Assembly (NCBI GenBank): GCA_035221665.1
Contig: CM069146.1
Location: forward strand, 15,996,001 to 16,060,000
Direction of reading: 5' to 3'
Length of the DNA stretch: 64,000 nucleotides
Source of the DNA: Okamejei kenojei
Lineage: Eukaryota
Below, one piece after another: positions 4,870 through 18,074 of this stretch. The position numbers and the translations under genes are program-made. The notes under the pieces are model-generated. The model made no database searches, was not told the origin of the DNA, and saw nothing but the letters and a program-made list of their open reading frames with translations. How positions within the stretch are numbered: position 1 is the first letter of the stretch; the number at the start of each line of letters is the position of its first letter.

Positions 4870-7181
4870 AGCCGAAATCTTTAGCAAGCTAAAAATTGAT
4901 TAATCTTTAGCTGTAATTTGTTTATGTGGATTATGTAGTGTTTTGCAGAAGAAATTATCTTTGCATTTGGCATGTGTGATGATGAAGTTTGTTGAATCTC
5001 AACTGGTGTCTATCTGTTTCTGTGGTGAGCATTTATCTTTTGACAAATCCATTGCGCAGACACCCTGAAAGTTGTTACAAAACAATTTGGCTGGATAAAA
5101 ACCAGATATGCCCGCTTACACTGTTCATACAAACAGGTCTTTTGGTGTATATAATTAGCGATGAGGTTTTTAAAGTGATTGGATATCTTGTAAATGGAAC
5201 CACTTACTTTCTATCTTCTCACCATTACAAAAAAATGGCTGCATTTAACATTTTGTGGTGACGTTATGGTACTTGCGACCTTTTTTACAGAGCTGAATCA
5301 AATACTGCATTATTCTATCCATGCACGGCATGCTAACAACTAAACCTTTTAGATTATTTTGCTAATGGTATCAGAATTTCAAAGGATGTTGGTAATAGTA
5401 ATGGATAACGCTCCTTGTGAATTTCATTAAATATTAACCGCTCATAGAATTGGTAAAGGTTGAGAGGCAGCTTGAAAGATTTGAGGGAGATAAGGCATGC
5501 ATCATTATGTTCCTAACTGATAATTTAAGGTATTAGTGCTTAAGTTCTTTTTGTGTCTTTGGTTGAGGAATTACTATCGTCCAAGACATGACTGCTCTGC
5601 TTTTCGGAAGAGCCTTCCCATCTTTTATGCCAGCCTGAAAAAAAAACCTTTCTACATCATTCTCATCTGAAATACTGCTTGCTCCTTTTATTTTAAATAT
5701 GTACTTTGGAAGGTGTGTGTACATGATGGGCTTATGGGGTAAGTGAGAGGGTTGATAAGAGCTGACGTTATTGAAATGAAGGGTGTGTGAGAGCAAGTGG
5801 GTGGATCAGAAGAACGGAGAAAGGATCAACAAAAGCAGGTTAGCGGAAATCAAAGGTGATATTCATGCCATTGGTTTGTAGACTACTCTGGCAGAATATG
5901 AGATGTTGTTCCTCCAGCTTAGAATTAATTATTTTAATTGAACACATGTGGAAATATATTTGTTTCACCTGGAAGGATGTGTTGATAACTGTATGCCTCT
6001 CTCATGATTTATTAGATATTTTCACTCATCAAGTTCCCCTGCCTTATTATAGTGCACTCAGTGGTGCAGGTTTACCAGATTATTTGCTGCCATCTACTGG
6101 TGGTTCATAATAAATCATGCAATTGCCTACGTATGCGATTGAATGACCCAGAGGAAACGAGGAAAAAAGGTTGGTTTACAAAAAAAAGACACAAAGTTTT
6201 GGTGTAGCTCAGAAGGGTGGGCGGAAGGAAGTTTAATAATCACTTTTTAAAAGGGAATTGGATATATTTAAAAAGGAAGGGAAAAAATGCAAATTTATCA
6301 GGAATGAGGAAAGGGACAGATTCTGAGATGAATACTTATGTCAGAAAGCCAACATGATGGGTCAAACATTGCGCCTTTTATGTCATCTACCATTACATAG
6401 GAATTGAAAGGAAAGTCATTACCCAGTTAGTGATATAATAGCACATGTTATCTTGGAGAGTGATTGAAGTAAATAATAAGATGCATCTAAGGCGAGGCTG
6501 GACAAGATACAGGGAAAAAGGAAACAAAGGGTTTACGGTGGGTGAAAGGAAAGACTTTGTTCTGCAGAACTTAAACCAAGTGAGGCAGTACGTAGGTTTA
6601 ATGCGATCAAGGCGAGCTTGGAGACTTTTAAAGCAAAACGAAACATTAAAAAAAAAAAAATTCTCAATTGTTTCCTGTGGAATTGCAAGCTTGGCGTCAA
6701 GGCAACCACAACCAGATGGAGAAGTAAGGAGGGGGGGTGGTAGGAGGGTCTGGTTCACACCAGTGGCATTTTAGACTGTGCTTGTGGGAAGTAAATTGTC
6801 CTTGGTGTGTCAGACAGCGCTAGTGTACGGGGATCGCTGGTCGGTGCAGACTCGGTGGGCCGAAGGGCCTGTTTCTGTGCTGTATCTCTAAAGTAAACTA
6901 AGCCTCCCTTTGCCAGAGAGTCCCATAAAGGCATTACTTAAACTGGTGCATTGGCCTGAACTTGGAAAGTAGTGGTTCTGTAATGTTTCAATACTGTGCA
7001 TATTGCACAAGCAGGACTGCAAACAGTGGTTGAAATTCCAATGAGTAATAGAGTGGAAATGGCATGAAGCAATTTTAGTGATGGAAAAGATATTGTGTCC
7101 AAACTTCAGTTTAAGTTTCTTGTGTAAATGTCGGAGAGCAGTTGGGTTTAGAATTAGACACTGATCATAAGATCACAAGAC

Positions 7182-7820: not shown

Positions 7821-9166
7821 TAGCCTCAGCTTTAATTTGAGTGGAAAAATGTCTTGCTCTCCCAGTGGTGCGTGTTGGACAGTCGTTGTGACAGATTAGT
7901 GGCAGTGGAATAATTGGCAGATGCGATGATCAGGTGGAGTTGGATATTCGTGTGGAATCTAACTGTCCAGATTATGCTGGTAAGTGCTTGAGTCCCGAAC
8001 ATTTACCTATTTAGACATCAGCAGTCTGGTGTCTTTCACGCACATCAATTCATTACACCAGTCCCTTCTGCTGCTTGTTTTGATGTGGCACTAAGTCATG
8101 TAGATTAATCTTGCTGAGATTCCCCCAGCTTTTACTCTGAAGAATTGAACAGTTGGAATGCAAATAAGAAATAATGTTAAATTATTTATAAGCCATTGGG
8201 TGCTTTAAATTTTTTTTTTTTTTTTTGTAAAGCCATGCATGTCATTTTTTATATTTCTGAATGTTAGAAACATTGACCGTTGCAGAACCTGTTAGCTTTT
8301 ACTGCCGGCAGAATTTTAAGGGGCACTTTAGGGTGCTGCCTCAGTGCACTGCTGAAGGTCCTACTGCTACTTAAGCCACAACCATGGATTCTAGGACACT
8401 CTGAGCCTGCCGCATTTGGACAGGGTTGGGGCTGTGTGAGTGTGTGGGGGGGATGGTGGTGATGTTAGGGCAATAGCAGAATGCAGGAAACATGACGATG
8501 ATCTCGGGGTATTCATCTATGAGGTCCTGAAGTAGCAGCTTCTGAGAATTGCAGATCTGTACAGCCTAATCTTAAAATAGACCACTGCCCCTGCATGTAT
8601 TGGCACAAACGTGTTGTGGTGGGTGACAGGCTGCAAGGTGAAGAAACCTTCATTGAAATGGGATATTGTGCTCAGTATGGAAAAGGGGGCATTTCTTTGT
8701 AATGTTATTGCCCTCTGGTGGTGTGATATAGAAATTGCTTTGGAAAGCAATGAATCGTTTTCTATTTAATCACTCTGTACTTGCTGTATACCATGCAGCA
8801 GAGGCAAATGATGTGTTATTTTGTGTACCTTTTAATAATTGACCATTGTCATTCTGTGCTCTATAATCAATGCAATTCTGTGCCTTTTCATAATTTTATG
8901 TAATTCCACAAACAAATTACGGACATAAAATACTTTTAAATATAGGCCCCATTGTAATATTCTCAAGCTCTTATCTCCAATGTGTGTGCAGTCAAGTCCA
9001 GATCGTTTTTTTATGGTTCTAATGCTTTGATAAATATTGGCCTGGACTAGTTTGAGTGGTTACATGACTTTCGCCAAACTAAACCGATATATTACCCCCA
9101 AAGATAGACACAAAGTGCTGGAGTAACTCAGCGGGTCAGGCAGCATCTCTGGAGAAAAAGGATCGG

Positions 9167-9658: not shown

Positions 9659-9764
9659 CCCAGAGTCAGTGGAAGCTAGCCCTGCGGTTGCTGAGAAGAA
9701 CAGCTATGCAAATCACAACTATGGAAGTGCACAACATCATGGGTACCGAGGTCTGCCATATGCG
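9659..9764 (+). CDS. SETD5: SETD5 coding exon A (first coding exon in the window)
   Basis: Acceptor ttttttag| and donor GCG|gtgagt. Encodes [35 protein letters not shown], matching the SETD5 N-terminus ([10 protein letters not shown]...HNYG...GLPYA). 106 nt, phase 2 to 0. Confidence 0.95.
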
Positions 9765-10262
9765 GTGAGTAATCAAGCCCTGTTTCACCAGCAACTATGC
9801 CATGTGTACATTCTGTTCTGACAGGTTTAAATCAAAATGGCATGCACCTGAAAGAGTAATTTCCTCCAAATAGCCATATTAGTCCTTGAACTTACAACTA
9901 TTATATAGTTAACCTTGTGTGCGATTACTGGAAAGATTTACGGGTATGAACCAGCCATGTGGATTATTTAAAAAAAAAAAAGAAAATGAGTAGAAATTAT
10001 GGACAGTTTGTGGGCAGCAATATTTGGTAAGATACTGTTTTAGTATTTTTGTCTGTTTCTGTTTGCTATGTACTGTAACAATCTGAGACGAGGCTTAAAA
10101 AGGATGCAAATTAAATTAGCTGATTCAGCTTAAATGGCAGACGTACCAAATAATTCTGAGATCATTAAGACATCAGATAAGCTGAAATGGACGAAAATGT
10201 GGTGAAGCAGTTGAATATCAGTTAATCACATTTGGAGGAATAAACAAAATGTGTAGGAAAGA

Positions 10263-13307: not shown

Positions 13308-16300
13308 CCTTCAATGTAAAAGTGCAAAGGCATGTTGGTTAACTGATATTAAATCAGAAAATGCTGCAGACACTCAGCAGGCCAGGCAGCATCTGTGAGA
13401 AAAGAGAGTTAATGTTTGAAGTCAAAGATTTTTTTCCAGACCTTGGAAAGAGAAAATATGTTGATTTTTGACAAGACCTTGATCGAAAATGTTAACTCCA
13501 TTTCTACTTTCATAGATGCTGCCTGACTGGCTAAGTGTTTTATTTCAGAGTTTTTCTTGTTCAACTGAGGTATCCATTCAAATTGTAGAGAAATATTTGG
13601 TATAAATGTTTAAAAGAAAGGTATAGGAGAATTGATAGTTTGTGGAGTTTAGGATGAAGAGGAAGGTGAAAGACTAAATGTAAAATCTTGAGAATGGGGA
13701 ACTGGACAATTTTATTTGAACACAATGACACATGAAATGAAGTTCCACCACCAATAAGTACTAATGCACATTGGATAGTTAAATGTTACAAGTTCTACAG
13801 ATGCGTTCTGTTCAATGCGATTGCTAGATATTTTCTTGTATAACCAAACAAAACAATAACAGGAGCTCAAATTGATTTTTTTTAAGAGTAGGAAGAATTC
13901 CTTATCAAATATATTCATCATCCAGTATTCTGAATAATCTGGATCTATATCCCTAATTTTCTTCTGTTCAGATTTTATTGAGGAATACCATGCACATTTT
14001 CCATTATTAGATTACAAATCTGTTATTAGAATATAAACATTCTATCATTTATATTTTAAGTGCACTAATAATTAAAATAATGCTACCTTTCCACTGAAGA
14101 GTTAAAATAATTAACGATGGCATTTGAGTGAGTAGTGAATATTTTGGACTTCCGGGGTATGAAGTGGGGCTCTAATGTATTGATATTGTTGTTGATCGGA
14201 CAATATGAATTTGTAATTTGAGAACTGAAATCAATTTTTAAATAAATCTGGAAATAAAAAGCACTGTTTCTGCTCCTGCATGTTACTGTGGTTCCTGTTT
14301 TATAATGGTTTTTGGAGAACAAAAATGAGGAGCAAAAGGAGATGTGTGGGGCAACTTTTTTTTTGCACAGGGTGGTGAGTGCCTGGAACACATTATTAGG
14401 GTTTGTGGTTGAGGCAGATACAATAGTGGTATTTAAGAGGCTTTTGGATAGGTATATGGTATATCCAAATGGATATATGGCAGGGAAAGGAGGGAAATGG
14501 ATTATGCGCAGATGATGATGGTTTTGGCATCATGTTTGGCACCGACAGTGGACGAAGGGCGTGTTCTTTTGCTCACTGTTCTTGTGCTGCATTGTTCTAT
14601 GTTCAATAGCACTAAAGGCAGCAACTTTAGTTTAGAGATACAGCGCGGAAACAGCCCCTTCGGTACACCTAGTCAGCGCCGACCAGCACTGTAAGGCAGC
14701 ACCATCACCGTGCCGCCCTATAAGCTTTCTTTTTGTATGTAACCTAGCTAAAACTTGTTGAAACTTCATCAGATATAAATTATGTTTTCCATTGGAGATT
14801 TGCATTTACAAAAACTTCTTTTGCAAAGATGTCTACTCTGTACACAGATTTAATTAGAATTGATCCTGTGGGTTTTAGCAACTCAATACACCATAGCCTT
14901 CTGCAGGAAAGAATTCAACCTGATTAAGTTGGTGTACCATGCTCAAGTATACATTTTCCTTTCCCTACCAATTTCCCTGTACTATAACCATCAATAATAT
15001 TGTTAAAAACAATATTTTTTGTGCTAATTCAAAGCAATCAGTTATGTTCCATTGGATTTAAGTGTGACTATGCCCAAAACATACTTATTATTCTTGGTAA
15101 ATGCAGTTAAAATCCTTACGTAATTGTAAATGTATACCACCACCACTGCGGGGGGGGGGGGGGGGACACTGCCTGGTGAAAAATGCAGCCTTATTTGAAC
15201 TTTTCTCTGTTTTCTTTGCATTCCGGTTTCTTTTCTATGCTTCTCTCTTATTCAGAAAAGCATAGAATTTTATGCATAGAAGGTTTGTCATGTTTACGAC
15301 CATGCAGGGATTTCTTCTCAACCTTCTGTCTTAACGCCATATCTCTTGCCTTTCTGTGTTTTTTTTGCTTTTTTACTCACTGATATTTATAAAACACTGT
15401 TCTCCAGATAATGTAATTAAGTTGATTTGGAGCTTTCTATTTTACTAAAAACACCATATTTAGCTTTACTGACTAATCATTTACAGCCTGATAAACAAAT
15501 GGGTGTTATCTTTCTCCTGCTTTATTTTCATTTGTTTGGGTTTCTCTGTTCTTTGTGAGCTGAGATGTGCCATATTGTAATGACAAACATTTCAGTAGAA
15601 ATTGAAGAGTCATTAAATCCTTTTTTCTAAAATCCTTTTAACTGCTTATGTCAGTGGCTTCTATTGTTGGTGCAGCAGCTCCATAATTCCATAACTATCT
15701 GAGAAGATTCCTGTACCTTATGCCTTGTATCTTTGAGATCTATCCCCATAGGTAGTTTCCATAAGTACTAAATTAGGATGATTGTTTGCTTGTGGAAAAA
15801 GACCCACCCTGCAGGGTTTTAAAGAGCTGATTGCCTCAAAATTGTTTATAATTTTTACCTGCATCTTAAAATTAAGGTCAGATTTCTGAATTCTTGCACC
15901 TCTCTACAGTTTCCATATGTTTGGTCGGAGAGGTATTTTTGGCTATTAATGCTCTTCATTATGAGAAAAAAAGCACGATTGAAATGAGATAGTTTCTAGA
16001 AGGAAAATCCTCTTCTTGGGATATCATAATTCAGTGCTGCATTCAAAGCTCAGTTTAATAAGAAAACATGGGTGGTTTGTTAGGTTTTGTAACCAGCTTT
16101 AATTTTAGTTAACAAATATGCTTAAAACTATTGCCTCAGAATATAGTGTTCTCTTCATGGTGAGTTTGTGTCTTGGCTCCATTATTTCCTCATGTTTCTT
16201 GGCGCCCAATTGCATATAGTCTCTACCCTGGGAACATTGTCACATTTAGGAAATGATGAGCAGTTATTGTCTATAAAACACTTTAAAGGGGAAATAAAAA

Positions 16301-16919
16301 ATTCCAAAGAAATTGGATCAAACTAAAGTTAATGCATTAACATTAGATCGAAAGAAACATCTTGAGATAGAAAAATATTCAAATCTTGTAAATCTTCTTA
16401 AAATTAATTTGCTCTAACTTCAGAATATGCTGCAAAAAACTTAGTTTATTACTTTTAAGGTGTCTCCCTGGCCAACTCTTATCACCAAGTAACTACACTC
16501 TAGTTATGTGTATTGGAACTATTATCTAGATTGATTGAATTGAAGGGAACAAAATCAATCCAGTACATTTTTTCTTAAGATTCTGTACCTTTGTTTGGGC
16601 TTGCATAAAACCTATGTTCTTGATGAGATGGCTGATATTAGGAATGGTTCATGTGGGGATTCCATGCACAATACTTATTTCTGAAATAAGGAAGTAGAAA
16701 AACCTTTTTTTCTACCAGTAATAAACGTTTGTTACCAATTTCCTTTCAAAATATTCCAATCATATATTGACTGTTACATGCAAATAAGGAGATTGTTTAT
16801 ACTGTTGTTGAAATAAGATTGTTTTAATCACTGGATTGAAAAGCCAAAGGCAGGAGTAGCTAACTCATTGATACTTTATTTTCTGTTGTTTTTTTAAACT
16901 TATTTCATTTCCTAAAAAT

Positions 16920-17086: not shown

Positions 17087-17298
17087 GACCATAACTATGG
17101 TGCTCCTCCTCCTCCAACACCCCCAGCTTCACCACCCGCACAGACTATAATCGCCCGAGTTGAGTTGAATCGATTGCGTTGCCAGCGATATGATGACAAT
17201 TCCGAGGATAGTGACAGTTCATCTGAGGACGAGAACCTTCCCTGGTGTCATTGTAGCTTAACCCAGGATGGTTTTATTATCACATGCGAGAACTGCAG
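17087..17298 (+). CDS. SETD5: SETD5 exon B: DHNY motif, Pro-rich tract, half-PHD Cys pairs
   Basis: ttaaag|GAC...TGC AG|gtacga. Encodes DHNYGAPPPPTPPASPPAQTIIARVELN...WCHCSLTQDGFIITCENC. 212 nt. An alternative in-frame acceptor is possible at 17144. Confidence 0.93.
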
Positions 17299-18015: not shown

Positions 18016-18074
18016 GGGCCTAGACAGGCGAAAGGTTATCAGACTCCAGCGCAGGAAGCAGGAGAATGTGTCTG
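18016..18074 (+). CDS. SETD5: SETD5 exon C
   Basis: cacag|G GGC...TCT G|gtaagt. Encodes (R)GLDRRKVIRLQRRKQENVS, similar to SETD5 KVIRLHRRKQDNIS. 59 nt, phases fit both neighbours. Confidence 0.93.

Follow-up and report, generated by a model that had tools for sequence, protein, structure and literature searches.

An exon-like 27-nt segment with an in-frame stop in an intron of SETD5 of the skate Okamejei kenojei

Does an intron of SETD5 in the skate Okamejei kenojei hold a regulated poison microexon, or a decoy that splicing almost always passes over? The original prediction saw in a 27-nt segment of this intron a neural microexon of the SRRM3/4 type, lowering SETD5 through nonsense-mediated decay (NMD) and possibly ancient in jawed vertebrates. 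Here we examine the segment within a window of 64,000 nt (assembly GCA_035221665.1, contig CM069146.1, positions 15,996,001 to 16,060,000); unless another locus is named, coordinates are window positions on the + strand. Our preferred reading, at a probability of roughly 0.55, is a cryptic (decoy) exon, almost always skipped.

The host intron and the signals of the segment

The window carries the middle part of SETD5, with 17 coding exons mapped in order. The best matches of the exon B peptide are skate and ray SETD5 at 99-100% identity, which together with the ordered exon map bears out the gene assignment. Coding exon A (9659..9764; 106 nt, phase 0, ending ...GLPYA) is placed by exon mapping and by contigs from two sequencing runs, X5 and X11, on 9659-9763, and coding exon B (17087..17298; 212 nt, starting DHNYG) by protein match, contigs and exon mapping. 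The intron between them, partly N in the window, measures 7,322 nt, the candidate lying 5.5 kb past exon A and 1.8 kb short of exon B. The 371-nt candidate region gave one match only in a search of the genome, and an Rfam search of the window returned none.

The candidate exon (15256..15282), whose inclusion was seen in none of the contigs and proteins examined, has 27 nt between its AG and GT, within the 3-27 nt range of microexons. It is preceded by a pyrimidine tract (15200..15253; 46 of 54 positions C or T, 85%) with five YTCTY words of PTBP type, and the span from 15189 to 15253 is free of AG over 65 nt. A putative SRRM3/4-type TGC (15238..15240) stands 18-16 nt upstream of the candidate, with a second TGC at 15217 within the tract and TCTCTC at 15242-15247. 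The acceptor AG (15254..15255, context ttcag) scores 10.1 bits, the highest value in the 7.3-kb intron. The donor GTTTGT (15283..15288, context AAG/gtttgt) is weak at 4.6 bits, being off consensus at +3 and +4, and the donors after it score lower (3.1 at 15412, 0.6 at 15576). By motif scan, a single branch-point-like yUnAy motif is predicted upstream of the tract, at 15190..15194, about 63 nt from the exon, and no RBFOX site is present within 300 nt on either side. The predicted RNA fold of 15150-15340 is dominated by a G run pairing with the tract and carries no weight as evidence. Tract, TGC, TCTCTC, acceptor and donor all stand where they had been described.

Spliced after exon A, the segment reads K-S-I-E-F-Y-A-stop, which confirms the stop that had been proposed; the TAG (15277..15279) is codon 67, CDS nt 199. 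More than 20 exons lie downstream, so that the stop precedes a downstream junction by more than 50 nt. NMD would still be uncertain, because the stop sits at the edge of the start-proximal escape zone of about 200 nt, whose boundaries run from about 21 to 100 codons in the available part of PMC12776119. Reinitiation would hardly rescue the protein, since the first in-frame AUG comes about 490 nt after the stop, and nine out-of-frame AUGs, counting from the start of the exon, precede it.

How close is this arrangement to known neural microexons? Those described in excerpts of PMC12871342 have an extended pyrimidine tract, a distal branch point, high conservation and, as a tendency, weaker 3' splice sites, and the portion of bioRxiv 2024.09.17.613571 consulted gives UGC in 74-79% of SRRM3/4 microexons and a cis-regulation conserved from shark to mammals. 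The skate candidate resembles them in its length of no more than 27 nt, its long U/C tract, its distal predicted branch point and a UGC between that point and the AG. It differs in that SRRM3/4 microexons, according to the same partial sources, are conserved across jawed vertebrates and included in neurons, whereas the candidate is a sequence pattern only. Its stop also requires comment. Most SRRM3/4-dependent microexons preserve the protein. A microexon acting as a neural NMD switch is nevertheless said to exist in Bak1; that one is reportedly 5 nt long, frame-shifting, controlled by PTBP1 and experimentally proven, whereas the skate candidate is a predicted segment of 27 nt with an in-frame stop.

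Rarity of the pattern and signs of its use

To score splice sites, we used a weight matrix trained on this genome's own SETD5 and its paralogue KMT2E (23 acceptors and 23 donors), a small matrix that favours its own training sites. Seven of the 23 true acceptors score higher than the candidate acceptor, and every one of the 23 true donors, themselves part of the training set, scores above the candidate donor. Of the window's 6,658 AG..GT pairs that lie in introns and span 3-30 nt, the segment ranks 11th by summed score; on the antisense strand, 4 of 5,020 AG..GT pairs reach or exceed it. The tract stands out more clearly, its 85% pyrimidine over 54 nt comparing with a maximum of 70% at the 16 true acceptors scored.

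A background of 800 kb, from 40 stretches of the same genome and both strands, contained 13 sites equalling or exceeding both splice scores (six with TGC) and 24 sites combining a tract of at least 80% with an acceptor of at least 8. The latter corresponds to 1.9 expected per window, and two were seen. None of these 24 adds the donor, and the full pattern does not occur in the 800 kb. Multiplied by a donor rate of 13% and by the 30% of intronic AGs that have a TGC, this gives about 0.08 full patterns in a window of 64 kb and about 0.01 in an intron of 7.3 kb, the thresholds having been set after the candidate was seen. An in-frame stop turns up by chance in 40% of random 27-mers from introns and carries little weight. 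As to the SRRM3/4-type signature, the resemblance of the long U/C tract, the AG-free span and the UGC near the AG to the microexons of PMC12871342, so far as its excerpts describe them, holds, but dependence on SRRM3/4 finds no support in a TGC as common as this. In all, the full pattern is only modestly rare, which is suggestive but short of decisive.

Use of the segment was sought in transcripts. Among 24 listed sequencing runs, none of which gives a treatment such as NMD inhibition, four runs of relatives were aligned to the intron: three contig runs (X4, X5 and X11, whose RNA status was guessed) and one raw-read run. One contig joins exon A directly to exon B in X5 and again in X11, and in X4 the two exons have equal contig depth. 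The depths predicted from the skip contig are 37.49/29.64/52.63 for X4 (observed 37.5/29.6/52.6), 14.80/11.56/20.78 for X5 (14.8/11.6/20.8) and 5.15/4.02/7.23 for X11 (5.16/4.03/7.24). The skip contig thus explains the depth on exons A and B to rounding in all three, and no inclusion contig is present there. This skip-only result, from runs of relatives whose tissue is not stated, is a weak one, because assembly into contigs loses minor forms and any included form would be thinned out by NMD.

In the raw-read run, five reads cover the start of exon B, and exon A has none. The alignment of the whole intron is crowded by repeats, with 343 minor joints outside the view. The bin 15081-15341 has depth, but it also holds a 16-G run and the tract, from whose matches those of the exon are indistinguishable; in the stranded run this depth is mostly in the non-sense orientation, and we do not count it as support. 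Almost no read or contig depth falls on 15342-15602. A search of sequencing runs based on the terminal exon plus 3' UTR listed no RNA run and is not used as evidence.

Proteins point the same way. The microexon peptide is found in none of 339 SETD5-family proteins (the best 120 of 591 matches, cluster members and ten short ones): 276 join exon A directly to exon B, 25, all from ray-finned fishes, have an insert, and 38 are not scorable. Nor does any of the ten short N-terminal SETD5 matches end in this peptide. Protein models are poorly suited to reveal an exon that carries a stop. Even so, the proposal that the segment is included as an exon found no confirmation in the contigs or the proteins.

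The matching intron in other vertebrates

At a teleost locus (L017) the orthologous intron is 427 nt long. In similarity to it the microexon region ranks 35th among 425 window tiles, a chance level, and the best small AG..GT pair of this teleost intron scores 10.5 against 14.8 for the skate candidate, so that no comparable small exon is seen there. Teleost introns lose elements easily. The same intron has its own tract of 85% pyrimidine with TGC, serving an alternative acceptor that precedes exon B by 30 nt. In ray-finned fishes, alternative acceptors lying 30 and 21 nt ahead of exon B (L017 1751-1853), preceded by a long pyrimidine tract with TGC, add MQQSSVVCCQ or SSVVCCQ, and the added Met is annotated as start in several species. 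We considered the 10-aa insert MQQSSVVCCQ as a microexon and rejected it, the insert being contiguous with exon B and due to the upstream alternative acceptor. Positions 16727-16919 resemble the first half of the teleost intron weakly but in collinear order (fourth among the 425 tiles) and may mark the older part of the skate intron. The paralogous KMT2E intron holds no counterpart and no homologous segment beyond a G run. Scans of metagenomes with the exon-B alignment gave 593 pattern matches and no relative, and with the exon-A alignment 1 locus of 89.

In mammals the matching intron carries a different exon. The supplementary tables of PMC13078869, covered for 30 of 31 places in one file and 21 of 26 in another, with the main text by term, list nine human SETD5 events, among which five distinct exons of 225, 193, 137, 41 and 97 nt are flagged for NMD on inclusion; the smallest of the nine rows is 39 nt. 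No SETD5 microexon is among the human and mouse rows inspected, in event lists that reflect particular samples and could overlook very short exons. The 137-nt exon (hg38 chr3:9434044-9434181; mm10 chr6:113110084-113110221; Tables S5a and S2a) is very likely in the same intron as the skate candidate, because the sizes and order of the flanking exons match (106/209/59 nt in human, 106/212/59 in skate), the intron itself being 326 nt in human versus 7,322 nt in skate. Its inclusion likewise brings a premature stop early in SETD5, but it does so by shifting the frame over 137 nt and not by an in-frame stop within 27 nt. Together with the lack of a donor at +137 in the skate, this speaks against orthology of the two, though a skate orthologue of the 137-nt exon may lie in the stretch of the intron that reads N. 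In these tables its inclusion in mouse is 0.05-0.34 over 46 samples (adult brain 0.14-0.24) and is not neural-specific, and its change under cycloheximide in human neurons is not significant (FDR 0.39).

The neural function once proposed for the skate segment is matched, in the same tables, by the 225-nt and 193-nt exons, which also stop SETD5 early and are brain-enriched in mouse. Their inclusion in adult brain is 0.66-0.77 and 0.50-0.68, and their change under cycloheximide 0.35 (FDR 3e-6) and 0.43 (FDR 4e-4), respectively. They differ from the candidate in lying one intron upstream, in not being microexons and in being supported by data. The view that SETD5 dose is under the control of alternative splicing and NMD thus holds for human and mouse, as far as the tables of PMC13078869 go. 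The 225-nt exon, identified by length and offset, is the only SETD5 exon in the part of PMC12129014 covered; it also figures in a list of PTBP-knockdown events. According to partial text of PMC10132239, a SETD5 exon that is not named there is included more often after Matrin3 knockdown. The 97-nt exon in human SETD5 intron 17 has low-level inclusion in controls according to extracts of PMC9912651; as a cryptic exon with good splice signals, little inclusion and a stop it resembles the skate candidate, for which no inclusion at all was seen.

Other lineages also place sequence here. A mormyrid SETD5 model has a 42-nt in-frame insert at the matching intron, a chimaera model (XP_007888443.1) starts M-DHNYG, and two lizard models (one of them XP_032997321.1) start MW-DHNYG; such starts need another exon upstream of exon B. 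With the mammalian 137-nt exon, these models indicate that the matching intron hosts optional exons in several lineages.

The conservation of the microexon itself in jawed vertebrates is not borne out: in a comparison that covers one teleost intron and the human and mouse rows inspected, it is absent from the former, and the latter list the 137-nt exon instead. SETD5 was not found in the supplements of the zebrafish and retina microexon papers PMC12626420 (12 of 13 files) and PMC9303857 (12 of 18 files), nor in those of PMC11188260 (12 of 13 files) and PMC11632617 (1 file). No published SETD5 microexon turned up in a literature search of partly covered sources, VastDB and the bioRxiv supplements, which may bear on the point, lying outside it.

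Several exon-like features of the skate gene deserve mention in their own right. Upstream of exon A, the top-scoring cassette candidate (8233-8458; 226 nt, acceptor 13.6, donor 5.5, one genome match) has the RBFOX motif TGCATG at its start and is, by size, like the brain-enriched 225-nt mammalian exon of the matching intron. A second cassette candidate shares the intron of the 27-nt segment (15910-16159), with an acceptor at 15910 (6.9) that could pair with a donor at 15932, giving 23 nt, or with one at 16159 (ATG/gtgagt, 7.9), giving 250 nt. A 20-nt version (16140-16159) is also present, and no contig depth crosses 15910-16159; an exon ending in ATG at 16159 would explain the chimaera M-DHNYG model. 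At 9825-9962 an acceptor 60 nt after exon A is followed, 138 nt on, by ATG TGG, the codons needed for the lizard MW-DHNYG models. The length is near that of the 137-nt mammalian exon, but these codons have no GT after them; a donor at 9943 gives 119 nt. The feature is possibly a remnant, possibly chance. At 15467-15486, about 190 nt past the candidate, branch-point and QKI-like words (ACTGAC, ACTAAT) precede an AG at 15485-86 that has no good donor after it. Near position 5682 of locus L002, an exon further downstream in SETD5 seems to have a GC donor (AAG/gcaagt), as in a GC-AG intron. Lastly, in two catshark models the reading begins within exon B in another frame and returns to the normal one through a 10-nt addition before exon C (18016-18074); a frame-shifting acceptor of this type was rejected for the skate, which has no AG at that place.

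Cryptic exon or poison cassette

We consider that U2AF could bind the strong tract and AG, and that the weak GT 27 nt later would seldom suffice: with so tiny a segment and so poor a donor, exon definition would rarely succeed. The U/C-rich tract may in addition bind PTBP-type repressors, the rare included transcript would be predicted to end translation at codon 67, and no regulated switch would be involved. Against this cryptic reading stand the top acceptor of the intron, a tract richer than that of any true acceptor scored, a full pattern unmatched in 800 kb, and a matching intron that carries optional exons in several lineages. That the segment is a real poison cassette of any kind is a clear minority prospect, divided about evenly between neural use under SRRM3/4 and a general or repressor-controlled use. 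In the latter version, which we hold unlikely, a cassette of cartilaginous fishes, included at a low level and either broadly expressed or repressed by PTBP or Matrin3, would reduce the dose of SETD5, the role predicted for the 137-nt exon in mammals. The shared intron, the chance of about 0.01 in one such intron, the YTCTY words and the Matrin3 effect reported in PMC10132239 would suit it, but inclusion contigs are missing from all three runs, the donor is weak, the teleost intron offers no match and the stop lies at the start-proximal edge.

The model of the original prediction, an SRRM3/4-activated microexon whose stop would lower SETD5 in neurons via NMD, we judge a little less favourably still. 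Its size, the UGC between predicted branch point and AG, the extended tract and the brain-enriched poison exons that partial records place one intron upstream in mouse Setd5 agree with it. Yet the acceptor is strong where neural microexons, in the excerpts of PMC12871342, tend to weaker 3' splice sites; their high conservation contrasts with the absence from the teleost intron and the mammalian rows inspected; setd5 did not appear in the searched supplements of the two zebrafish and retina microexon papers; and RBFOX sites are lacking nearby. An ancient SRRM3/4 microexon is not supported. Alternatively, tract and AG would serve as the acceptor of a longer optional exon (e.g. 157 nt to the GT at 15413, frame-shifting) or of a terminal exon, the GT at 15283 being incidental. 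An acceptor far stronger than its donor and the 41-225 nt range of mammalian SETD5 NMD exons in the tables covered lend this some appeal, but with lower-scoring donors downstream and almost no depth on 15342-15602 we regard it as the least probable of these accounts. The cryptic exon thus remains our preferred reading.

Poison-exon control of SETD5 is in itself not a new concept, five NMD-flagged human events being already tabulated in the part of PMC13078869 covered. If the segment is cryptic, it illustrates that chance alone yields a pattern of tract, TGC and stop in about one of every twelve windows of this kind. If it is real, dose control of SETD5 by unproductive splicing would reach back to the cartilaginous fishes and could be re-created by a new exon within the same intron; a rare stop-carrying target would also be added to those of SRRM3/4. 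In its boldest form, which we think quite improbable, cartilaginous fishes would have independently placed an SRRM3/4-driven stop microexon in the very SETD5 intron that holds the mammalian 137-nt NMD exon, a repeatedly re-invented dosage valve of a haploinsufficient neurodevelopmental gene whose position would be conserved while the exon turned over.
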